From Clostridia bacterium (lineage in GTDB: Bacteria; Bacillota; Clostridia; Oscillospirales; Acutalibacteraceae), in the NCBI GenBank assembly GCA_017623615.1, contig JAGAOT010000014.1:78958-110957 (forward strand): a stretch of 32,000 nucleotides of DNA, in the 5' to 3' direction. Of this stretch, positions 16,684 to 32,000 are shown in pieces; the stretch's first letter is position 1, and every line of letters begins with the position of its first letter. Below the pieces are notes generated by a model that worked only from the letters and a program-made list of their open reading frames with translations, searched no databases and had not been told where the DNA came from. The translations under genes were made by a program, and so were the position numbers.

Positions 16684-16700
16684 AAAATCGGGGTGATTTG

Positions 16701-18248
16701 ATGTTTGTTGTTACAAGCAAGCAAATGTATGCGGCGGAGTGCAACGCCGTTAAAAGAGGAATATCCTTTCCGCAGCTTATGGAAAATGCGGGTCAGGCAT
16801 GCGCCAAAATCATAAAAAAGCATTTTTGCATCAGCAAGGAAAATCCGCGCAATGTGCTGATTATCTGCGGCAAGGGCAAAAACGGCGGTGACGGCTTTGT
16901 TATCGCCCGCAAAATGTGGGAATACGGCTGTGACGTTACCGTTATGCTTGCCTGCGGGGAGCCGAAGGCAAGGGACGCCGTTGACATGTTTTCGCTTGTT
17001 GAATCGGCGGGAATTAACATAGTAAGATATAACAATAACCTCACCGTTTTAAAGCCGCATCTTGAAAAAGCGGAGATAATTGTTGAGGCGGTTTTCGGCA
17101 CGGGCTTTACCGGCTCGCTTGACCATTCTTTGAGCGTTCTTGCGCAGGCGGTCAATGCCGCAAAGGCACCCGTTGTTGCGATTGATGTGCCTGCGGGTGC
17201 GGACTGCGACAGCGCAACCGTGCAGGGCACGGTTTTTAAAGCGGATATGACAATCGCAATTTCGGCATACAAGCCTATTCATATCATGAAGCCATGCAGC
17301 AAATACTGCGGAAAGCTTGTTGTTGCCGACATAGGCATAACAACCGATGATATCAAAAATATCGACAGCGTAACCTGCTTCACGCTCGGCACGCAGGAAG
17401 TCAAATCCATGCTTCCCAAGAGAAAGCCCGTTTCAAACAAGGGCACCTACGGGCACGCCCTTTGCGTTTGCGGAAGCATGAGGATGACGGGCGCGGCTTA
17501 TCTCGCCGTTGGCGGTGCTCTGCGCTGCGGCGCGGGGCTTGTTACCGCGGCATTCCCGCAGAGTGCATATCCTGCAATCGCGCCGAAGCTTACAGAGCCG
17601 CTTCTGCTGCCTCTTGAATCAAATTTTGAGGGCACCTTTGCCTTTTCCGCAATGGCGGGGGTTATCGAGGCATCAAGCCGCGCAACTGCGGTTTTGGCAG
17701 GCTGCGGACTCGGATTTAACAAAGACACAACCCTGCTGGTTACAAACCTTATAAAAGAAATAAAAAAACCGATGATTATTGATGCAGACGGCATAAATGC
17801 TTTGAGCACAAATATAGATATATTGAAAGAAGCCGAAGCACCGATAATCATAACTCCGCATCCGGGCGAAATGAGCCGACTTTGCGGCAAGAGCATTCCC
17901 GAAATTCTTGCAAACCCAATCTCGATTGCATATGATTTTGCAAAGAAATACGGCATAACGGTTGTCCTGAAAGGCGCAAACACCGTTGTATGCGACGGCA
18001 AAACAGACGGAATTTATGTTAACGCAACGGGCAATTCGGGGCTTGCGCGCGGCGGAAGCGGCGATTTGCTTGCAGGAATGGCGGTTTCATTCCTCGCGCA
18101 GGGCATGAAGCCGTTTGATGCGGCGATGTGTGCCGTTTATCTGCACGGCTTGTGTGCGGATGAGGTTGCAAAAAACACCTCTATGCGCGGAATGCTTCCG
18201 AGCGATGTTTTGAATTATCTGCCCGAGCTTTTTTCAAAATTTGAATAG
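16701..18248 (+). CDS. nnr: Bifunctional NAD(P)H-hydrate repair enzyme (epimerase + ADP-dependent dehydratase)
   Basis: YjeF_N motif CGKGKNGGDG. The C-terminal carbohydrate-kinase-like domain has GGSGDLLAG. ATG 16701 preferred over TTG 16698 (SD GGGGTGA 16690-16696). Ends in TAG 18246-18248. Confidence 0.9.
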   Translation: MFVVTSKQMYAAECNAVKRGISFPQLMENAGQACAKIIKKHFCISKENPRNVLIICGKGKNGGDGFVIARKMWEYGCDVTVMLACGEPKARDAVDMFSLVESAGINIVRYNNNLTVLKPHLEKAEIIVEAVFGTGFTGSLDHSLSVLAQAVNAAKAPVVAIDVPAGADCDSATVQGTVFKADMTIAISAYKPIHIMKPCSKYCGKLVVADIGITTDDIKNIDSVTCFTLGTQEVKSMLPKRKPVSNKGTYGHALCVCGSMRMTGAAYLAVGGALRCGAGLVTAAFPQSAYPAIAPKLTEPLLLPLESNFEGTFAFSAMAGVIEASSRATAVLAGCGLGFNKDTTLLVTNLIKEIKKPMIIDADGINALSTNIDILKEAEAPIIITPHPGEMSRLCGKSIPEILANPISIAYDFAKKYGITVVLKGANTVVCDGKTDGIYVNATGNSGLARGGSGDLLAGMAVSFLAQGMKPFDAAMCAVYLHGLCADEVAKNTSMRGMLPSDVLNYLPELFSKFE

Positions 18249-23524: not shown

Positions 23525-23600
<76 letters not shown>

Positions 23601-23636
23601 ATCCCTTGAAACTTAAGGTTTCAAGGGATTTTTCTT
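23601..23636 (+). terminator. Intrinsic terminator after tRNA-Thr
   Basis: 12-bp stem ATCCCTTGAAAC / GTTTCAAGGGAT with loop TTAAG, followed by a T-run. Confidence 0.8.
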
Positions 23637-23655
23637 GTGTTTTATGAAATTCATC

Positions 23656-23700
23656 AGACCGCATCCCTAAATCGCAATTTTTTAGTAAGGGATGCGGTCT
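23656..23700 (+). repeat. 13-bp perfect inverted repeat abutting the integrase start
   Basis: AGACCGCATCCCT (23656-23668) / AGGGATGCGGTCT (23688-23700) with a 19-nt loop. It ends 4 nt before ATG 23705. Confidence 0.7.
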
Positions 23701-23704
23701 AACT

Positions 23705-24637
23705 ATGAGCAGAAAAATCACTATGAACAGGACTGAAAACAAGACCTTTGAACAGGTCTTTTCAATGTTCATCACTTCAAGAACGGCAAACGGCGTTTCC
23801 GATGCAACAATCAGGAATTATCATCAGCATTTGCACAGTATTTCAAAGTATCTTGACATTAAGATGCCCTTTGATAAGCTCTCCAAAAGCACCATTGATG
23901 ATATGATTGTCGAAATGCGAAACTCCGACCTTGCCTATAATTCCATTGCAACCTATGTCAGGGTTGTAAAAACTTTTCTTACTTGGTGTAATGAGGAAGG
24001 TTTGTCTGATGTTAAAATCAAAGGTCTGAAGGAAAAGGAAACGGTAAAAGAAACTTACACCGATGAGGAGCTTGAAATCCTGTTGGCAAAACCGAAAAAG
24101 GACTGTAATTTTTGCGAATACCGTAATTGGGTTATTGTCAATTTTCTCCTCAACAGCGGATGCCGAGCGGCAACAATCAGAAACATTCAGAACAGAGATG
24201 TTGACCTTCAGCGAAAACAGGTTATCTTCCGACATAATAAGAACGGCAAAATTCAGGTTATCCCCCTTTGTTCTCTGATGTGTAATATCCTGATTGATTA
24301 CATGAAAATAAGGCAGGGCGAAGCAGAAGATTATCTTTTCTGCGACCAATACGGCAAAATGCTGACCGAGAACGGTCTCAGACTTGCCATTGAACGATAC
24401 AACAAGAAAAGAGGCGTAAGCAAAACAAGCACGCATCTGTTCCGCCACACCTTTGCCCGAAAGTATTTAGTTGACTGCGGCGGCGATGCCTTTATGCTTC
24501 AAAGGCTCTTGGGTCATAGCACTCTGAACATGACAAAGCATTACTGCACAATCTTCGATGCGGATATTTCCAAGAACTATGACAGAGTTTCTCCACTTGC
24601 TCAGATGCACCAAGAGAAAAAGAAAATAATCAAATGA
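23705..24637 (+). CDS. Tyrosine site-specific recombinase (phage-type integrase)
   Basis: 310 aa. SAM-like N-domain plus a catalytic domain carrying the R...HxxR...Y signature context (GCRAATIRN..., THLFRHTFARKY, LLGHSTLNMTKHY). Confidence 0.9.
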   Translation: MSRKITMNRTENKTFEQVFSMFITSRTANGVSDATIRNYHQHLHSISKYLDIKMPFDKLSKSTIDDMIVEMRNSDLAYNSIATYVRVVKTFLTWCNEEGLSDVKIKGLKEKETVKETYTDEELEILLAKPKKDCNFCEYRNWVIVNFLLNSGCRAATIRNIQNRDVDLQRKQVIFRHNKNGKIQVIPLCSLMCNILIDYMKIRQGEAEDYLFCDQYGKMLTENGLRLAIERYNKKRGVSKTSTHLFRHTFARKYLVDCGGDAFMLQRLLGHSTLNMTKHYCTIFDADISKNYDRVSPLAQMHQEKKKIIK

Positions 24638-24644
24638 TATAAAG

Positions 24645-24691
24645 AAAGAAGCAGGAGCTTATCAGGAGCTTATCAACTTTCCTGCTTCTTT
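24645..24691. terminator. Bidirectional terminator hairpin with an 11-bp tandem duplication in the loop
   Basis: Stem AAAGAAGCAGGA (24645-24656) / TCCTGCTTCTTT (24680-24691). AGGAGCTTATC occurs twice in tandem at 24653-24674, the first copy overlapping the last 4 nt of the left stem arm. Confidence 0.7.
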
Positions 24692-24747
24692 TTAATTAGT
24701 TTGAAACAACCTTTTTGCTACATTATAAGAACTTTTTAACAACTTTT

Positions 24748-25869
24748 TTAATCGTTATACATACCTCTTATCTTATCTAAATGAGCCTTATACCCTTCAA
24801 CCACATGGTCGGGTGCAAGAACCTTTACTTTTTTACCGAATCCTGCAAGCCAACCATAAAAAGGTTCACTTATATCAACCGTTGTCATAACTGTAAAATA
24901 ATCTTTGTCGAGCTTAGAATATGACACGCCCTTTTTACCGAATCGCTCAACAACGGCATCCAAAAGGAAGTTGGGGAAACAGAGTGTGACCACTTCTGTT
25001 TTGCCTTTAAACATATTAAATGTTCTTTTTATGAGCGATTCAATATTGGTCTTTTCGTATTCTTCTTCGCCCTCTCTCGGCTCAGATGTAAAACAAACGT
25101 CTTTCATCCTGTCAACTCTATAAATTCTTATCTCTTTGTATTTATCGTCAAATCCTAAAAGATAATAATTGCCGTCATTGATAACGAGCTTATAAGGACT
25201 GACAATATATTTTTCTCCTTTTCTCTGTGCAACCTGATTGTGAAGGTCGTTTATTGAGTTTTTCATATAATGAAAACTTATCTTTTCAGGTTCGTGCGGT
25301 TCGCCGTCATAACTGACACTCATTGCTTCGTAAATAGTTTGAATGTTGTATATCAGAGCGGTGTTTGTTGTTTTGGGTCTGTCGATAACAAACGCATCCG
25401 CCTTTATTTTCTTTGCCTGATGAACACTGAGAAATTCACAGGCGGCATCAATCAATCGCTGAGCTTCAGATTCAGAAACAAATTTTGCCGAGTTAATGCA
25501 CTCAGTCATAAGGCGAATATCCTGAAGGCTGAAGTGTCGCTCAGGGATATAAAATCCTTTGGGATGTTTGTAAAGAATCAATTTTTCTTCATCGTATTTA
25601 TCGTTCGCAATTACTTTTACGGCTTCATCAATATCAGAATCGTTTTCAAGCATCCAATTAACTTCATTTATTTCTTCAATATCTTTGTATATGGAGCGGC
25701 GTTCCGCATAAATCTGACAGTTCTCCTGAAGAAAAGCCTCAATCATTTTGCCTGAAGCATAATTATCTTCATCGGTTTCTCTGAGAAGATACTGAAGAAC
25801 GATATAAGGCTTCATGCGTTGCTTCGGCTTTTTGCCGTGATGCTTGTCAGGATGCTTTTTTTTCGCCAT
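24748..25869 (-). CDS. WYL-domain transcriptional regulator (N-terminal wHTH + WYL + C-terminal extension)
   Basis: 373 aa. N-terminal HTH-like YIVLQYLLRETDEDNYASGKMIEAFL. WYL core YYLLGFDDKYKEIRIYRVDRMKDV. SD GAAGGTGA upstream. Confidence 0.75.
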   Translation of the reverse strand: MAKKKHPDKHHGKKPKQRMKPYIVLQYLLRETDEDNYASGKMIEAFLQENCQIYAERRSIYKDIEEINEVNWMLENDSDIDEAVKVIANDKYDEEKLILYKHPKGFYIPERHFSLQDIRLMTECINSAKFVSESEAQRLIDAACEFLSVHQAKKIKADAFVIDRPKTTNTALIYNIQTIYEAMSVSYDGEPHEPEKISFHYMKNSINDLHNQVAQRKGEKYIVSPYKLVINDGNYYLLGFDDKYKEIRIYRVDRMKDVCFTSEPREGEEEYEKTNIESLIKRTFNMFKGKTEVVTLCFPNFLLDAVVERFGKKGVSYSKLDKDYFTVMTTVDISEPFYGWLAGFGKKVKVLAPDHVVEGYKAHLDKIRGMYND

Positions 25870-25946
25870 AATATCACCTTCTTGTGTCTGTTGGCGATAT
25901 TATAACACGCAAAACCAAAAGTGTGAAGATGTATTTTATAAAGCAC

Positions 25947-25975
25947 TTGAAAAATTGGAATAATATTGATATAAT
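25947..25975 (+). promoter_or_regulatory. Strong promoter with extended -10
   Basis: TTGAAA (25947-25952), 17-nt spacer, TGaTATAAT (TATAAT = 25970-25975). Confidence 0.7.
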
Positions 25976-25982
25976 AAATGCA

Positions 25983-26158
25983 CCACACAAAAACCGAATA
26001 TTAACATTTATCAGGAGTCCTTTTTTGTTTTGGCAAAAATGTAGACTTCTCTTTTGGCATTTCTGATAAGTGTTAAAAGGTTTTTGTGTGGTAGCAAATC
26101 GAAGTTCTGCATTTTTCGGTGTGTGCGGCTTCGGTTGCACACACTTTTTTATTTTTTT
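25983..26158 (+). promoter_or_regulatory. Structured 5' leader ending in an intrinsic terminator (candidate attenuator/riboregulator or sRNA)
   Basis: Perfect 13-nt long-range complement CCACACAAAAACC (25983-25995) / GGTTTTTGTGTGG (26079-26091). A nested pair ACATTTATCAG / CTGATAAGTGT lies inside it. The terminator GTGTGTGC (26119-26126) / GCACACAC (26137-26144) plus a long T-tract sits immediately before SD GGAGG and ATG 26173. Confidence 0.55.
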
Positions 26159-26172
26159 GGAGGTAAAAACAA

Positions 26173-26682
26173 ATGAAAAAAGCATTGAAAACAGTCGTCA
26201 TTCTCATAGTGGTAATTGCCATAGGTTTTGTGGCAATAAAACTTATTACCACTCCCAAAAGTGCTGAAATTGGAGAAACAGTAAAATATGCAAACAATGG
26301 TGAGTTTGTAGTAAATGATATTACTGTTTATAATGATGCTCTTGAAATGTTTGCAGACGGCTATCGTTTTTCAGAAGTCAAGGATGATGAAGGCTTAATA
26401 ATGGTTGATTTCACAATGAAAAACACAGGAAAAATTGATTTTGATGTAGAGCCTAAAGTAATAGTAAATTATGACAACGGTGTTGAATTTACATCAGAAT
26501 ACTTATTTCATAAGACATCAACGGGTTCATTTGAACTGTGTCAAAATGGATTTTTATTGGAAAAAGTAACAAGCGATGCCGAAACTTTTGTCGTTGTTGT
26601 TCCTGTTCCACAGCAAGTCATTGAAAACGAAGATAAATCTCTTGAAGTGGAAGTATACTACAAGAATTATATTATTAGATAA
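26173..26682 (+). CDS. Membrane-anchored extracytoplasmic protein (DUF4352-like beta-sandwich, tentative)
   Basis: 169 aa. N-terminal TM VVILIVVIAIGFVAIKLI followed by a beta-rich domain (FVVNDITVYND...IMVDFTMKNTGKIDFDV). SD GGAGG upstream. Confidence 0.7.
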   Translation: MKKALKTVVILIVVIAIGFVAIKLITTPKSAEIGETVKYANNGEFVVNDITVYNDALEMFADGYRFSEVKDDEGLIMVDFTMKNTGKIDFDVEPKVIVNYDNGVEFTSEYLFHKTSTGSFELCQNGFLLEKVTSDAETFVVVVPVPQQVIENEDKSLEVEVYYKNYIIR

Positions 26683-26721
26683 AATATCAAAAAGATAAAC
26701 AAACAAGAGGTGTTAATTGTT

Positions 26722-27267
26722 ATGAAGAAAAAAATTGCAAATGCAGTTCAGTTGGTATTATTAATCGCATCATTTATTGTTTTAAATTCAGAAAATATTA
26801 CAGACCCCGGCAAGTTTTCTGCCATTACATTTTTAAGAGACTGGTCATCCATGCTTATCCCTATGTATGTTTTATATATACTCTGTGCCGTTATGTGCAT
26901 TATTTCCATTGTTTCAAAAAGCAAACATAAAGACGGAAAAGCTCATGGTGCTGTTGCAATATTACTATTTATTTACACAATGTTTTTCTTCTGTTTCTTT
27001 AATTCAAGTGACTATAACTGTAAGATTATTGAAACCGATTTCCCCATCGCACTTTTCAGCGGTTTACTGTTTGCAGTAATAGTCGTTGCCTTTGCAAAAC
27101 GTTCTTCACTCATTGCAGAACCAAAAGAATCAAAGCAGACGGTTGTTAACAACATTCAGGAAACAACAAATGCCGATGAATTGAAAAAGTATAAAGACCT
27201 GCTTGACAGCGGTGCAATATCACAAGAAGAATTTGATGCAAAGAAAAAGGAACTTTTGGGTTTATAA
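26722..27267 (+). CDS. Multi-pass membrane protein with C-terminal SHOCT domain
   Basis: About four TM segments, then DELKKYKDLLDSGAISQEEFDAKKKELLGL (SHOCT-type short oligomerisation motif). ATG 26722 preferred over the track GTG 26710, which overlaps the SD. Confidence 0.7.
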   Translation: MKKKIANAVQLVLLIASFIVLNSENITDPGKFSAITFLRDWSSMLIPMYVLYILCAVMCIISIVSKSKHKDGKAHGAVAILLFIYTMFFFCFFNSSDYNCKIIETDFPIALFSGLLFAVIVVAFAKRSSLIAEPKESKQTVVNNIQETTNADELKKYKDLLDSGAISQEEFDAKKKELLGL

Positions 27268-27274
27268 TATTAAC

Positions 27275-27299
27275 GGGGAACGGTTTTGAGCCGTTCCCT
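27275..27299. terminator. Bidirectional terminator hairpin
   Basis: GGGAACGG (27276-27283) / CCGTTCCC (27291-27298), with T-rich flanks on both strands. Confidence 0.7.
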
Positions 27300-27305
27300 G
27301 TTTCT

Positions 27306-27893
27306 TTATGTCTCCAAAAGAGAAAGATATTTATAAACCGTGTTTCTACTCAGACCGCAGACCCTTGCGAACTCAGAAAGATTCAGATTGCCCGATTTGA
27401 ACGCAGGATAATGTCTGTAAAACACTTGCGGAATCGCATCCGTTGTTGTTTGCGGTCGCCCGATTTTCGCTCCCTTTGCTTTGGCATTTGCCATTCCTGA
27501 ACGCACTCTTTCACGGATGATTCTGAGTTCGAGTTCCGCAAACACTCCCGACATCTGAATGAACGCATTTGTCATGGGGTCAATCTGACCGTTTGAACAA
27601 TCAACCGTAATACTCCCCACAATTACGAGACGGAGCTTATTATCCTTTACGGTTTCGATAATTTCACAAAGTTGCTTTGTGCTTCGGGCAAGTCTTGAAA
27701 CTTCAAGAGTATAAATTGTGTCTCCTTCCTGAGCCTGTTCCAAGAGGGATGAAAGCTCCTGCTTCACGGCACTGTCGCCGTGTTCGTATTCAAGGAATAT
27801 TTCCGTTGCTCCTGCGGCTTTCAGTTCTTTAACCTGACGAAAAATATCTTGTTTGCTCTCATTAGTCGAGCAACGTGCATATCCGTAGTTCAT
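27306..27893 (-). CDS. Small serine recombinase (resolvase/invertase type) with C-terminal HTH
   Basis: 195 aa. N-terminal catalytic motif YGYARCSTNESKQD and the E-helix ELELRIIRERVRSG. C-terminal HTH LSEFARVCGLSRNTVYKYL. Confidence 0.9.
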   Translation of the reverse strand: MNYGYARCSTNESKQDIFRQVKELKAAGATEIFLEYEHGDSAVKQELSSLLEQAQEGDTIYTLEVSRLARSTKQLCEIIETVKDNKLRLVIVGSITVDCSNGQIDPMTNAFIQMSGVFAELELRIIRERVRSGMANAKAKGAKIGRPQTTTDAIPQVFYRHYPAFKSGNLNLSEFARVCGLSRNTVYKYLSLLET

Positions 27894-27907
27894 GATTTAT
27901 CTCCTTA

Positions 27908-28174
27908 TCAATCAACAAAGGTGTTGTATGTGAATTTTGCTCCAAGCTTAAAGCCTGCAATAAAACTGTCTGCGTTGCTTACACAAAGGAACTCACCCGA
28001 CTGTTTCAGATATGTGTCAAACAGTTCGCTTTCCGCATCGGTCAGGCTTGCGGCAAGCACACTCTCTGTCTGAGACAGAGCTTTTAATCTCTTTCTGAGT
28101 TCGGGTTTCAGCTCGGTTGTGATTTCCTGCGGCTCGATGTTTCCGTAATAAAATTCTTCAATAAAGTTCGGCAT
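27908..28174 (-). CDS. Hypothetical small protein (MGE-associated, EEFYYGNI N-terminus)
   Basis: 88 aa. SD GGAGAAAGGA upstream. Sits 14 nt upstream of the recombinase gene in the same operon. Confidence 0.6.
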   Translation of the reverse strand: MPNFIEEFYYGNIEPQEITTELKPELRKRLKALSQTESVLAASLTDAESELFDTYLKQSGEFLCVSNADSFIAGFKLGAKFTYNTFVD

Positions 28175-28223
28175 CTTTTATCCTTTCTCCGCCCCACTGT
28201 TGCGTGGGGCGGACTGTCTATTC

Positions 28224-28499
28224 TCAGCAGATTGAGAAGCGGCGGCTGCTGACCTGCTTTGTGAACTCCTTATACATTTCACCGTGCATCTTCTTGAATG
28301 CGGTGGTATCGAATCTCTGTGAGAGCACCGAAGTCCAACGGATGATATAAGCTCCTGCTTCAAGTTCCTCGGTGTCCTGTTCAAGCATCTCTGCTTTGAG
28401 TGCCTCTCTGATTGCCTCTGCTTCTGCCTTAGCATCCTCGATGATTGTTTCCCACTCTGCGAGAGCCTCGATTTTCTTGATGATTTCGTTGTTTGACAT
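28224..28499 (-). CDS. Hypothetical coiled-coil-rich small protein, first gene of the recombinase operon
   Basis: Start set at ATG 28499 (MSNNEIIKKIE), 8 nt after AAAGGAGA. The track start 28541 lies inside the promoter/operator region. 91 aa. Confidence 0.6.
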   Translation of the reverse strand: MSNNEIIKKIEALAEWETIIEDAKAEAEAIREALKAEMLEQDTEELEAGAYIIRWTSVLSQRFDTTAFKKMHGEMYKEFTKQVSSRRFSIC

Positions 28500-28554
28500 G
28501 GTTGTTATCTCCTTTGTTTTTATTTGTTTGGTGTGTATCAACTGTCTATATTAT

Positions 28555-28640
28555 AGCACTAAATATTAGTGCTGTCTATTGACATATTGCACTAACTTTT
28601 AGTGTAATCTTTGTGCAAATTTAGCACTTGATTTTAGTGC
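28555..28640. promoter_or_regulatory. Divergent promoter region with three palindromic operators (CI/Cro-like switch)
   Basis: O1 AGCACTAAATATTAGTGCT (28555-73, perfect). O2 GCACTAACTTTTAGTGT (28589-605). O3 GCACTTGATTTTAGTGC (28624-40). Leftward promoter is TAGACA (28573-78), 17 nt, TATAAT (28550-55), with O1 filling the spacer. Rightward promoters are TTGACA (28579-84), 18 nt, TGTAAT, and TTGATT (28628-33), 17 nt, TGaTAGAAT (28651-56). Confidence 0.7.
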
Positions 28641-28685
28641 AACAATATGATAGAATGATTACACTGGGAAAGGTGGTGCTAAAAT

Positions 28686-28904
28686 ATGGCATTACAGTAT
28701 AAGATTGATATTATGGATGCGTTAAAAAACAAAGGCTATTCTTCAACTAAAATCCGTGAAGAAAAACTTATCGGTCAATCATACCTTCAACAAATCAGAC
28801 ACGGCGAATTGGTATCATGGAAAACCATTGATACTCTTTGCTCCCTCTTAGACTGTCAGGTGGGCGATTTGGTTGAGTATGTAAAAGACCCCGATGCTCA
28901 GTAA
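28686..28904 (+). CDS. XRE/Cro-CI-family HTH regulator
   Basis: 72 aa. Typical short HTH protein with C-terminal TIDTLCSLLDCQVGDLVEYV. SD AAAGGTGGTG upstream. Confidence 0.8.
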   Translation: MALQYKIDIMDALKNKGYSSTKIREEKLIGQSYLQQIRHGELVSWKTIDTLCSLLDCQVGDLVEYVKDPDAQ

Positions 28905-29177
28905 AGGGGTGTTCGAGTTTCTTGAACAAATAACGGCGATTTTCGTGCGGAATACACCCGATTTTTACCGAGCTTAAAGTGTGAATGAAAGCAGTTGTTT
29001 TTCTGAACAGGGGTCAGGGGGTATATTTCGGGAGAATCAAAAACACTTTCGCCCTTTGCGGAATTGCGTGGCTCGTTCTCCGTCTGAATGTGATTTTTGT
29101 TTCGGATTACGGTTTATCCCGACCGCAAATGATAGAATGATTATTTCTCCGTCAAACAAACCAAAAGGAATATAAAC

Positions 29178-29224
29178 GAAAAAATACGGCAAACCGTGAG
29201 ATTGTCTCTCTTGGTTTGCCGTAT
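29178..29224 (-). terminator. Intrinsic terminator ending the TAG-containing operon (hairpin also usable on the plus strand)
   Basis: 12-bp stem ATACGGCAAACC (29184-95) / GGTTTGCCGTAT (29213-24), followed by ATTTTTTC on the minus strand. Confidence 0.75.
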
Positions 29225-29226
29225 TG

Positions 29227-29358
29227 TTATTTGAAATCTTTAAAGATTTTGTCAAATGCCATATCAAGTGCGGTTTTCATGCTCTTTTGCATAAAGGCAA
29301 GAATTTCCGCCTCGATTATGTTCTTCTTTTTCCGCTTTTTATCTTTTGGCTTCGCCAC
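29227..29358 (-). CDS. Small basic protein, 43 aa (operon gene E; no internal TAG)
   Basis: GTG 29358, 6 nt after AGGTGAA. Translation (M)AKPKDKKRKKKNIIEAEILAFMQKSMKTALDMAFDKIFKDFK, TAA stop. Not on the ORF track because it is under 60 aa. Confidence 0.5.
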   Translation of the reverse strand: MAKPKDKKRKKKNIIEAEILAFMQKSMKTALDMAFDKIFKDFK

Positions 29359-29360
29359 TG

Positions 29361-29546
29361 TTATTTCACCTCGCTTGTAAAGATGAATTGAACAGTTTCG
29401 GGTTCTTCCGAATCATGTAATGAGTTGAAGAAATTATCTCTCTGTTCTGTATAGTTTTCTATTGCAGATTTGCCGTTCATTTGATAATAAAACAAATCGG
29501 GAACTTTGCCCTATGCCCTGTTAAACTCCAATAAATCTTTATTCAT
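29361..29546 (-). CDS. Hypothetical 61-aa protein requiring TAG read-through (operon gene D)
   Basis: ATG 29546, 7 nt after GGAAGGAGAA. Translation MNKDLLEFNRA-[TAG 29511-29513]-GKVPDLFYYQMNGKSAIENYTEQRDNFFNSLHDSEEPETVQFIFTSEVK, TAA stop. Its start overlaps the gene C stop (ATGA). Confidence 0.6.
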
Positions 29547-29980
29547 ATATTTTCTCCTTCCATAATATCATCAAGGGATATATTCAATGCAACCCTGTTG
29601 ACTGTATAGCTTCTCCAATTTTCCTCTTTTGGAATCTGAGTGTTCAGCGGCGGCTAATACAGGCGGATGAAATATCCTTCTCTTTCTCCGATTTCTTCTT
29701 CGATTTCTGCTCTTGTTTTGCTCTTGGCGGTATAAAGAACATTGAATCTGACGTTATATCTCCGCCTATGGGCTTCCGCAAGAACTTTATATTTATTCTC
29801 TTTTGGATTTCCCATTGAAGCCCAATGTTCCGCCATTCGGTATAGAATATCTTTGCTTTTACCGATATAAACGATTTTATTGTTGACGGTTATTGAATAA
29901 ACCCCCGAACACTAAAACTTTTTACTCCATTCTTGCTCAATGTATTTGTTGTATATGTTCTGTATGTGTAAATTACTCAT
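29543..29980 (-). CDS. GIY-YIG nuclease-domain protein, 145 aa, requiring read-through of two TAG codons (operon gene C)
   Basis: ATG 29980, 7 nt after AAGGAAGGAG. Translation MSNLHIQNIYNKYIEQEWSKKF-[TAG 29912-14]-CSGVYSITVNNKIVYIGKSKDILYRMAEHW...EREGYFIRLY-[TAG 29654-56]-PPLNTQIPKEENWRSYTVNRVALNISLDDIMEGENI, TGA stop 29543-45. The track shows only the 60-aa fragment 29654..29836. Confidence 0.7.
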
Positions 29981-29995
29981 ATTCATTCTCCTTCC

Positions 29996-30478
29996 TTAAA
30001 ATACAAAATTACCGTGTTCGTCTGTTGAACACTCACTTACTTTTTGATTCTTTATATTGTTATAATTTATATTATTCGAGCTTATAATTTTCTCTATATT
30101 ATTATGCGTATTTTCAATAACCCCTGCTGAGGTATATTCAGAATTTGAAGGGGTATATTCATTGTCGGGGGAAGGGGTATTTTCAATATCCCTCTCCGCA
30201 CTTTTATAAATCGCATCATAATCAACGATGATTTCACCTTGCTGACCGTTTTCGCTTGGCTTGTGGATTATCCAACCTTTTTCAATCAGCTTTTTTCTTG
30301 CACTCTTATATGTTGTTTCTGACATTCCGCATCTGCTCATGACCGTCGCCTCAGGAACGGCAAAACTGCCGTTGTCTGCGTTTCCTGTCAGAAATAATAT
30401 CAGTTTCAGCTAAGCTCCTTCTTTGCCTGTCAGACCGTTAAATATTATTGATTCAAGGTGATTCGTTCTCATTGCCAT
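29996..30478 (-). CDS. Winged-helix (replication-initiator/DnaD-like N-terminus) protein, ~160 aa, requiring TAG read-through (operon gene B)
   Basis: ATG 30478 or 30472. Translation MAMRTNHLESIIFNGLTGKEGA-[TAG 30410-12]-LKLILFLTGNADNGSFAVPEATVMSRCGMSETTYKSARKKLIEKGWI..., TAA stop. The track ORF 29996..30340 starts in the middle of the HTH. Confidence 0.65.
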
Positions 30479-30509
30479 TCCCCACTTTTTATCCCTGTTT
30501 TTTTCTCCA

Positions 30510-30689
30510 TTAGCCCTCAGTATCGGTGCCTGAATAAAAACGCCCATAGCCGCAAATCCTCCACTATTCGCAAATAAATCTGATATACTGACTTGTATTC
30601 ATGTGATATTTTCTTGCCTACTCTTGGATTGCTTCCTTTTCTTTTTCAGTCAGGCGAAGGTCAATTTTTTTATCTTTTTTTGGACTCAT
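30510..30689 (-). CDS. Ribbon-helix-helix / MobC-like small protein, 59 aa, requiring read-through of one or two TAG codons (operon gene A)
   Basis: ATG 30689, 7 nt after AAGGAGAG. Translation MSPKKDKKIDLRLTEKEKEAIQE-[TAG 30618-20]-ARKYHMNTSQYIRFICE-[TAG 30564-66]-WRICGYGRFYSGTDTEG, TAA stop 30510-12. Confidence 0.65.
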
Positions 30690-30758
30690 TTTATCTCTCC
30701 TTTTACTTGTAAATTTTCTTTGAAATGAATTATCAGACGTTGTCCTACCTTCTAATAT

Positions 30759-30787
30759 ATTATACAAAAAATTTTTCTTAAAATCAA
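30759..30787 (-). promoter_or_regulatory. Promoter of the TAG-containing operon
   Basis: Minus strand TTGATT (30782-87), 17-nt spacer, TATAAT (30759-64), about 70 nt upstream of ATG 30689. Confidence 0.7.
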
Positions 30788-30803
30788 AAAAGAGCGGTCG
30801 CCG

Positions 30804-30840
30804 CAAACAAAAACGCCACTGAACAGTTGAGTTCAGCGGC
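30804..30840 (-). terminator. Intrinsic terminator after the upstream paralog gene
   Basis: Minus strand CCGCTGAAC / GTTCAGTGG (plus 30816-24 and 30831-39, one wobble), followed by CGTTTTTGTTTG. Confidence 0.7.
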
Positions 30841-30874
30841 GGACTTGCTTTATTAAAATACATATGGATTCCTC

Positions 30875-31342
30875 TTATGAAACTTTTTTAAGTTGGAGTT
30901 CTTCGCTCTTTGTCTCTTGGATTTCTTCCGAATCCTTTTTAATAGTCGGCATACCGTTATTTACGATTTCAGGATATTTCTCCAAAAACCAATTTTTTAT
31001 TTCGGGATAACGGTGTGCTTTCGAGTGGCATTCACTGATAAAAAGTTTATCATCAAGTTCTTGGAGAACAGCATCTCTTGTTTCAATGGGCTCAAATCTT
31101 CTGATAAATTCTCTCATATAATCATAAGTTAATCCCTCATAGTGTTCCTGATTGCCGTTGATTTTTATATCTTCACGAACAACAACCTTATAGCTCGGGA
31201 AACTCTTTATATATCCTGCATGTATTTTAAACTCCTTATTTTTGGGGTTCTTTGCTTTTTCCGCAAACCATTTGTAAAGGACAATTTGATTGTTAGCGTG
31301 GTCGAATCTTGCAGGGTTAATTCTTGTTTTAGTCTTTGCCAT
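30875..31342 (-). CDS. Hypothetical protein, paralog 1 (YxGLxYDYM ... WFLxxYPEI motifs)
   Basis: 155 aa. SD AGGAAAGGAAGG upstream, TAA stop. Shares two motifs with the upstream gene. Confidence 0.7.
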   Translation of the reverse strand: MAKTKTRINPARFDHANNQIVLYKWFAEKAKNPKNKEFKIHAGYIKSFPSYKVVVREDIKINGNQEHYEGLTYDYMREFIRRFEPIETRDAVLQELDDKLFISECHSKAHRYPEIKNWFLEKYPEIVNNGMPTIKKDSEEIQETKSEELQLKKVS

Positions 31343-31365
31343 AGTTATTTACCTTCCTTTCCTAA

Positions 31366-31821
31366 TTAAGCCACAACTCTGAGATTGGCTTTCTTTTCTT
31401 CACGAACCTTTGCTCTCTTGGCTTTAATTTCCTTAAGTGTCTTGTCGGTATCATTGTTGAATTCTTCGATTTCAGGATATGTCGCCAAGAACCACATTCT
31501 TACATCACCATAAGAGTATTCTTTGATAGCAACATCTCTTTCACCTTTTTCATTAAGACCCCTGAGCTTATAGAACATTTTAAGATTTTCTTCCTTATTG
31601 TCATGAGCTTCGATATATCGCTTCATGTAATCGTAATCAAGACCTTTGTAAGTATCTTTATTAGTTGAGTTTGCTTTTACAACGATTTCAAAATCAGGGC
31701 ATAATGTGCGGAGTTTTACAAGTTCATTGAACTTTTCACTGCCGAACTTTCCTGCTTCCTTAGCTTCTGTCTTTGTCATTTCGATTGTGTTTTTTTCAAA
31801 ATTAATTGTCATAGTTATCAT
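31366..31821 (-). CDS. Hypothetical protein, paralog 2
   Basis: 151 aa. ATG 31812 (MTINFEKNT) may be the real start, given the spacing from AAAGGAA. YKGLDYDYMKRYI and WFLATYPEIEEF match paralog 1. TAA stop. Confidence 0.7.
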   Translation of the reverse strand: MITMTINFEKNTIEMTKTEAKEAGKFGSEKFNELVKLRTLCPDFEIVVKANSTNKDTYKGLDYDYMKRYIEAHDNKEENLKMFYKLRGLNEKGERDVAIKEYSYGDVRMWFLATYPEIEEFNNDTDKTLKEIKAKRAKVREEKKANLRVVA

Positions 31822-32000
31822 TTCCTTTACTAAATTATTTTGCGGTAAGTCGCTACCTTATTTCAGCACTTCAGGTTTCACCGTTTGCCTCTTGGTTTCG
31901 TTCACTCCTTTCAGGCGTTTTGTTTTGGTGTGTTCCCCTCTGCTGTGTCTACAGTATATCACGCAACCACAATTTATCAGTCGTTATAAATGCAAAAAAC

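Follow-up and report, generated by a model that had tools for sequence, protein, structure and literature searches.

A GIY-YIG nuclease gene with two in-frame TAG codons in a small clostridial island: an intact gene in an operon probably dependent on amber suppression in trans

The locus described here raises the question of whether a nuclease gene interrupted by two TAG codons, on a chromosome that uses TAG as a stop, is a damaged gene or an intact one in which TAG is read as a sense codon. The gene lies on the minus strand of a 32,000-nucleotide stretch of Clostridia bacterium DNA (contig JAGAOT010000014.1, positions 78,958 to 110,957; hereafter the window), within a small integrated island, and encodes a GIY-YIG nuclease resembling phage T4 endonuclease II (EndoII). 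Comparison with homologous loci shows that the gene is intact and under protein-level constraint on either side of each TAG, and makes it close to certain that TAG is decoded as a sense codon; the comparative case for glutamine as the inserted residue (TAG = Gln, or 'code 15') is strong. It is quite probable that the gene is an intact code-15 nuclease gene in an operon licensed by amber suppression in trans. The gene and its signals are as follows.

29543..29980, minus strand: GIY-YIG (T4 EndoII-like) nuclease gene, 145 codons (438 nt) with TAG as sense, from the ATG at 29980 to the TGA at 29545-29543
29912..29914, minus strand: in-frame TAG1, codon 23, in the linker preceding the GIY strand
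29654..29656, minus strand: in-frame TAG2, codon 109, just past the catalytic-Glu helix and before P-P-L-N113
29988..29997, minus strand: Shine-Dalgarno (SD) sequence AAGGAAGGAG of the GIY-YIG gene, overlapping the TAA of the upstream HTH_36 gene
29543..29546, minus strand: ATGA stop/start overlap of the GIY-YIG gene with gene D, the ATG of gene D being at 29546
29552..29561, minus strand: SD sequence GGAAGGAGAA of gene D, inside the GIY-YIG frame

An initial annotation of this DNA had described the frame with its TAGs, SD sequence, ATG and ATGA overlap, and all of these statements hold for the minus strand. The translation is MSNLHIQNIYNKYIEQEWSKKF-stop-CSGVYSITVNNKIVYIGKS...EREGYFIRLY-stop-PPLNTQIPK...EGENI-stop, where 'stop' marks a stop codon, and the peptides spanning the TAGs in the read-through product are FQCSGVYSITVNNK and LYQPPLNTQIPK. 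As had been stated, the SD sequence (29997-29988) and the ATG lie upstream in the same frame, with TAG1 as codon 23, and the GIY half-motifs begin two codons past TAG1, where C-S is followed by GVYSITVNNKIVYIGKS. TAG2 falls within EREGYFIRLY-TAG-PPLN at 29656-29654, after which the frame carries the SD sequence of gene D and ends at the TGA within the ATGA, an overlap that is kept in the related loci L002, L003 and L005-L007. The list of standard-code open reading frames (ORFs) contains only a 60-aa piece at 29654-29836, which corresponds to residues 49-108 of the frame, contains neither of the motif tyrosines nor the Asn, and is, as the annotation had recognized, only the middle of the GIY-YIG domain.

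With X placed at the TAG positions, residues 25-110 match Pfam PF01541 (GIY-YIG) at 27.6 bits against a gathering cut-off of 22.6, and residues 10-118 match the endonuclease family PHROG_1111 (E = 1.7e-9) in an alignment that covers both TAGs. T4 EndoII (2wsh), which is by sequence the closest relative with a solved structure, was found at E = 1.3e-7 in a homologue-profile search, where residues 20-115 were aligned across TAG2 and the FIRLY-x-PPLN segment of the GIY-YIG protein was aligned to FIKLFNPPWN. None of the residues Y28, Y38, R48, H52, E101 and N113 varies among 21-25 homologues; P110, L112, N113, P117 and W122, all located 3' of TAG2, are also invariant among homologues. Because the catalytic N113 lies downstream of TAG2 and both motif tyrosines lie downstream of TAG1, the active site of any standard-code product would be incomplete. 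We know of no GIY-YIG gene that has been described as amber-interrupted.

The AlphaFold2 model of a 98% identical homologue has a predicted local distance difference test (pLDDT) score of 93.9. The predicted fold is that of GIY-YIG proteins, with a three-stranded sheet plus helices, and Foldseek gave a probability of 1.0 for the UvrC N-domain (1ycz), EndoII (2wsh) and I-TevI (1ln0). In the model, TAG1 is located in the linker from helix 17-22 to strand 26-32, and the TAG2 residue is located directly after helix 90-108, at its C-terminal end; the placement of TAG2 inside a conserved helix, as first proposed, is not reproduced. The initial annotation had also quoted the E. coli UvrC text for this segment. 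The text, LLEHNYIKLYQPRYN, is right, and Q stands opposite TAG2 in a pairwise alignment. However, the match to Gln was partly luck, because the TAG2 column varies over the superfamily (Asn in T4 EndoII; Q, M, R, K or L within the family).

The pattern seen in the window recurs in a family of homologous loci. A protein search returned 103 homologues, and a DNA scan with one genome per species gave 72 genomic loci, nearly all labelled as Oscillospirales-type or other Clostridia (Oscillospiraceae, Acutalibacteraceae and unclassified Clostridia metagenome-assembled genomes), together with a few Lachnospiraceae and one contig from a bin labelled Bacteroidaceae. Cultured members include Oscillibacter valericigenes, Pseudoflavonifractor phocaeensis and Hominicoprocola fusiformis. 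When the frames were read with only TAA and TGA as stops, at least one in-frame TAG was present in 62 of the 72 loci. The 70 alignable GIY frames contain 112 in-frame TAGs in 34 columns, with every frame running at full length to TAA or TGA, and up to 4 TAGs occur in a single 145-codon gene (L020, L023, L052 and L064). By tblastn, only one TGA and one TAA were found at the aligned positions of 76 GIY matches. On these alignments, the recurrence of the TAG pattern is far beyond chance.

The nearest loci indicate how the TAGs behave within a constrained frame. TAG1 is retained in L002, L003, L005, L006 and L007, whereas TAG2 is CAG in L002 and L003, which are 94-95% identical to the window, and TAG in L005-L007. 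Over codons 1-22, the window differs from L002 by 12 synonymous changes and 1 non-synonymous change (13 third and 2 first positions differ), and this synonymous bias indicates that the leader peptide is translated in this frame. The proposal that ribosomes pass the TAGs thus finds support in the constraint on both sides of them, in the exchange of TAG with CAG and CAA, and in the conserved ATGA overlap. In the NCBI/JGI standard-code annotations (P0060, P0062, P0066 and P0088), the gene is cut into fragments of 91-111 aa, which begin right after one TAG and end at the next, so that GIY-YIG genes of this family are mis-annotated by standard pipelines.

Glutamine, which the initial annotation had favored, is the residue best supported by the comparison. 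In the GIY alignment, the residue opposite TAG is Q in 24% of cases against a background of 3.1%, and a nearly invariant Q column (in NTQIPK) contains 61 Q, 1 H and 9 TAG. At the 112 TAG sites, the non-TAG codon of the nearest relative is CAG in 35 cases and CAA in 12 (42%), where Gln codons make up 3.1% of all codons; GAG/GAA accounts for 24 further cases, Asp codons for 11 and Lys codons for 10. The CAG at TAG2 in L002 and L003 agrees with this assignment. Decoding of TAG as Gln is reported to have been demonstrated by proteomics in gut phages (PMC9523058). The profile alignment suggested at the outset spans TAG2 and places invariant residues after it; the TAG2 column is varied, and Glu predominates in the TAG1 column among distant homologues. 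The 'Q' at the TAG columns of the closest database proteins was rejected as evidence for Gln; it is circular, because code-aware gene callers had translated these Logan/ENA proteins with TAG as sense. Translation of the L002, L003 and L084-L086 genes under table 11 does not give the stored proteins.

The TAG phenomenon covers the whole operon and the whole element family, which is beyond what the initial annotation had described. The neighboring features on the minus strand are as follows.

30510..30689, minus strand: NikA-like ribbon-helix-helix gene (Pfam NikA-like), 59 codons, with TAGs at codon 24 (30620-30618) and codon 42 (30566-30564)
29996..30547, minus strand: HTH_36 / phage replication-initiator-like gene (Pfam HTH_36), 183 codons, with a TAG at codon 46 (30412-30410)
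29361..29546, minus strand: small gene D, 61 codons, with a TAG at codon 12 (29513-29511)
29227..29358, minus strand: Lys-rich 43-codon ORF, the last gene on the minus strand after gene D, with no TAG
30841-30814, minus strand: terminator-like hairpin from a consensus scan
30787-30759, minus strand: promoter-like site from a consensus scan

Four consecutive genes bear TAGs, in the order NikA-like, HTH_36, GIY-YIG (the third) and gene D. They probably form one operon, and the hairpin and the promoter-like site, situated between the paralogous genes and the NikA-like gene, probably mark its start. The TAGs of the three genes flanking GIY-YIG stand at Gln-type positions. A listed ORF of 81 aa (30618-30863) spans both sites and is probably not a gene. 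The HTH_36 gene, for which the PHROG match is replication initiation / DnaD-like, is the conserved upstream neighbor of the GIY-YIG gene, and the TAG at its codon 46 is conserved in L001-L011. Codon 42 of the NikA-like gene is CAG in L002 and L003. Homologues of gene D, which has no Pfam, PHROG or NCBIfam match, contain 13 TAGs, 10 of them opposite Q.

In order to compare the operon with the remainder of the island, 13 island proteins were searched by tblastn against 76 loci, and a Fisher test was applied to the counts of TAG versus CAA/CAG. The four operon genes contain 149 in-frame TAGs against 507 CAA/CAG codons, while the nine other genes (integrase, WYL, resolvase, DUF6809, orf91, Xre, orf43 and two paralogues) contain 0 against 1486 (p = 6e-83). 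In-frame TAA and TGA are nearly absent from the aligned regions of the island genes, and the integrase homologues have no TAG over 10,123 aligned residues. By these counts, the recoding is limited to one operon.

The operon lies within an integrated island with the following landmarks.

23525-23600, plus strand: tRNA-Thr(GGT), at the island start
23555..23600, plus strand: 46-nt 3' part of tRNA-Thr(GGT), the attachment-site (att) core, with a second copy at the distal island end in L006 (7578-7623)
23601..32000: integrated island of ~8-9 kb, the far end being just past the window
23705..24637, plus strand: tyrosine integrase, standard code, with no in-frame TAG
26173-27267: cargo slot, here coding for two membrane proteins, of which one contains SHOCT
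30875-31342 and 31366-31821, minus strand: two paralogous genes of ~150 aa, conserved across the island family

The island of L006 spans ~8.2 kb between the tRNA-Thr repeats, and that of L004, which splits a GGGtGRT-domain gene instead, spans ~9 kb. The conserved content consists of the two paralogues, the TAG operon, Xre, orf91, DUF6809, the resolvase, a variable cargo, the WYL regulator and the integrase. The paralogous genes share a 58-nt segment that is 74% identical, and searches with Pfam, PHROG and NCBIfam gave nothing for either. Homologues of terminase, portal and capsid were absent within ±10 kb of all 72 genomic loci; together with the ~8-9 kb between the repeats or target halves, this rules out a complete prophage. 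Among the island proteins scanned with Pfam, PHROG and NCBIfam, no terS or capsid-modifying gene was recognized; no relaxase domain was found in any island protein scanned, the NikA-like accessory protein being the only related find. A megablast of 28000-32000 against phage and plasmid collections gave no match, and the 46-nt att core was not found in viral contigs.

The cargo in the slot between the resolvase and WYL genes varies, being an Mrr_cat/NA-iREase1 nuclease in L004 (12584-13855) and L085 and a 1030-aa protein in L002 (3886-6978), and the slot resembles a hotspot for defence-type cargo. Several genomes have the GIY-YIG element in two to four diverged copies (L005 and L008; L026 and L052; L027 and L070; L035, L036, L037 and L054); the isolates An860 (O. 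valericigenes) and An901 (P. phocaeensis) are among them.

The host is an Oscillospirales (Acutalibacteraceae-like) chromosome that uses TAG as a stop. Two of the 14 host genes in the window stop at TAG, as do 12 of 91 long ORFs in the host flanks (13%), compared with 6 of 201 standard-code genes of the islands (p = 0.002). Treating TAG as a sense codon over the whole window gave no clear gain, which indicates that the host is not recoded. One host gene on the plus strand (16698-18248) ends in TAG and has a second in-frame stop four codons on.

More distant GIY-YIG homologues (33-48% identity) occur in small phages, where they adjoin HTH_36 just upstream of terS/TerL. In L079, L082, L083 and L084, nearly all genes apart from the integrase are TAG-recoded, and the same holds for the 22,505-bp contig IMGVR_UViG_3300045988_102862 (L116 + L079), in which no terminal repeat was found. 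The identity between L084 and the island is 35% for the integrase, 37.5% for HTH_36 and 48% for the GIY-YIG protein. In the 11.3-kb IMG/VR contig L081, TAG occurs only in HTH_36 (1) and GIY-YIG (4), with none in TerL, portal or capsid, which indicates that the TAG habit travels with the HTH_36/GIY-YIG pair and not with 'late genes'. The Topaz clade comprises TAG-recoded prophages of 22±3 kb in Oscillospiraceae, with integration at tRNA-Thr and TAG-free integrases (doi 10.1101/2021.08.26.457843). The protein comparisons show kinship of the island with small phages that are TAG-recoded throughout the genome, and these phages resemble the Topaz clade in size, recoding and TAG-free integrase. In one sample, JGI 3300024269, the island copy L004 and the recoded-phage locus L087 occur together.

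The next point is what could decode the TAGs. No tRNA-CUA was detected by ARAGORN in the window or the 76 island loci, none was detected on the island by Rfam, and none was present in 29 terminase-related viral loci. Neither pyl genes nor a tRNA for pyrrolysine (Pyl) were found in the window or the loci. The island thus has no suppressor in cis. As the full catalytic set requires both TAGs to be read and the island has no tRNA-CUA, a full-length product needs amber suppression in trans. With UAG acting as an ordinary stop, a 22-residue peptide would be released from the GIY-YIG gene; the ambers would then serve as a translational gate, and the replication and nuclease operon would remain silent until a suppressing state arises in the cell. 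The gating role is an inference; the suppressor might come from the host, from a recoded phage or from some non-canonical factor. In the survey of Borges et al. (doi 10.1101/2021.08.26.457843), a suppressor tRNA was detected in only 40% of TAG-recoded genomes.

Several observations weigh against an intact gene licensed in this manner. The related recoded contig L116 + L079, at 22.5 kb of full Topaz size, has no detectable tRNA, and no tRNA-Gln body of the host type carrying a CTA anticodon was matched in an exact-pattern search of viral and metagenome contigs. A search for the junction of an excised circular island matched only an integrated copy. The operon boundaries are drawn from consensus promoter and terminator matches only. 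Ten of the 72 GIY genes have no TAG at all (L022, L033-L036, L039, L041, L043, L048 and L060), which means that the gate is not universal; these lineages may have reverted to the standard code or never left it. Most distant homologues have Glu in the TAG1 column, and the assignment of Gln at TAG1 follows from the general pattern and not from its own column. Finally, the support for translation through the TAGs comes entirely from sequence comparison.

These points must be weighed against what other explanations would require. If the gene were a decaying pseudogene, the TAGs would be nonsense mutations in a dead nuclease of a defunct island, which would agree with its division into 91-111 aa fragments by standard-code pipelines and with the failure to find a suppressor in cis. 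However, the 112 TAGs of the 70 homologues leave all frames at full length, with a single TGA and a single TAA in the tblastn matches; the TAGs exchange with CAG and CAA; the changes before TAG1 are biased to synonymous ones and the catalytic residues past TAG2 are invariant; and the TAG pattern extends to three neighboring genes and to none of nine others. This explanation is very improbable, and the comparison effectively refutes it. Leaky termination could instead act as attenuation, with host tRNA-Gln(CUG/UUG) misreading UAG rarely and a toxic nuclease and replication operon being expressed at a trace level. Very low expression would be plausible for a nuclease, and no suppressor tRNA was found in the island, its relatives or the full-size related phage. 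Nevertheless, the six TAGs of the window are followed by different bases (G, T, C, T, C and G) and 34 columns carry TAG, so that there is no shared read-through context; with up to 4 TAGs per gene, the multiplied low rates would approach zero; and the terminase, portal and structural genes of the related phages hold many TAGs and need bulk expression. Attenuation of this kind is quite unlikely.

An amber suppressor supplied constitutively by the host or a resident element would make TAG a rare Gln codon of recoded-phage ancestry with no regulatory role. The 22.5-kb recoded phage without a detectable tRNA suggests a pre-existing decoding capacity in the cell, and the depletion of TAG stops in the standard-code genes of the island (6/201 vs 12/91) points in the same direction. 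However, host genes stop at TAG at the ordinary 13%, and neutral drift between CAG and TAG would not leave TAG absent from nine genes with 1486 Gln codons; the published model and the TAG-free phage integrases point to a switch, and we regard a constitutive suppressor as unlikely. Some Firmicutes decode UAG as Pyl. Pyl or another residue in place of Gln would be in line with this and with the preponderance of Glu in the TAG1 column of distant homologues, but CAG and CAA are by far the commonest codons opposite TAG, the nearly invariant Q column takes 9 TAG, the search for pyl genes and tRNA-Pyl in the window and loci was negative, and the proteomic assignment reported for gut phages (PMC9523058) is to Gln. 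A residue other than Gln is extremely improbable.

Within the reading of an intact gene licensed in trans, the ambers might act as a sensor, in that a satellite or defence island would keep its operon untranslatable until a TAG-suppressing phage infects or is induced. Suppression by that phage would then allow the island either to replicate and hitch-hike or to cause abortive infection through the nuclease. Borges et al. speculated that a phage might detect co-infection by another phage through recoding (doi 10.1101/2021.08.26.457843). We put this forward tentatively and consider it possible but rather doubtful; if true, the island would be the first mobile element to use the genetic-code switch of another element as an induction signal.

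With these results, stop-codon recoding extends beyond phages to a compact chromosomal island that has no structural genes, where it is confined to one operon. Earlier publications cover the recoding of TAG to Gln, recoded prophages whose hosts use the standard code, and integrases free of TAG. The literature searched contained no account of a recoded satellite or non-phage island; TAG recoding confined to one operon, in an island that is not a phage and has no suppressor, is a new form of this known phenomenon. That neither the island nor the full-size related phage has a detectable suppressor bears on how the ~60% of TAG-recoded elements without one change the code. Copies in the cultured strains O. 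valericigenes An860, P. phocaeensis An901 and H. fusiformis CLA-AA-H188 make amber decoding testable at the bench in a standard-code gut Firmicute.

Compared with known systems, the encoded protein is closest to T4 endonuclease II (DenA; 2wsh) in the GIY-YIG superfamily, which includes the UvrC N-domain and I-TevI. Like EndoII, it is a single GIY-YIG domain of ~140 aa with identical catalytic residues, and E. coli UvrC has YIKLYQPRYN at the segment corresponding to FIRLY-x-PPLN. It differs from EndoII in that the identity is ~24%, the model has an additional N-terminal helical hairpin and a C-terminal tail, and the gene is always paired with HTH_36 in its family.

The island shares with Topaz and other code-15 gut phages the use of TAG as Gln within a standard-code Oscillospiraceae host, integration at tRNA-Thr, a TAG-free integrase and the grouping of recoded genes, and the Topaz-like phages have homologues of its GIY-YIG, HTH_36 and integrase proteins. 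In contrast to Topaz, the island measures ~8-9 kb instead of 22±3 kb and lacks genes for terminase, portal, capsid, tail and lysis. The recoded module is one four-gene replication/nuclease operon and not the structural and lysis modules of code-15 phages, and there is no suppressor tRNA in the island. Satellites resembling phage-inducible chromosomal islands have in common with it the small size, the integrase, Xre and WYL regulators, a replication-initiator-like gene, a variable cargo slot with nuclease or defence-like genes, the lack of structural genes and kinship to the phage lineage of their hosts. They differ in that no terS, capsid-redirecting gene or primase is recognizable in the island, where the NikA-like relaxosome-type protein hints at conjugative mobilization instead. 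In classical amber genetics, with conditional phage mutants and sup+ hosts, expression is likewise conditional on a suppressor tRNA; the ambers of the island, in contrast to those mutants, are natural, numerous and evolutionarily maintained, and they interchange with CAG.

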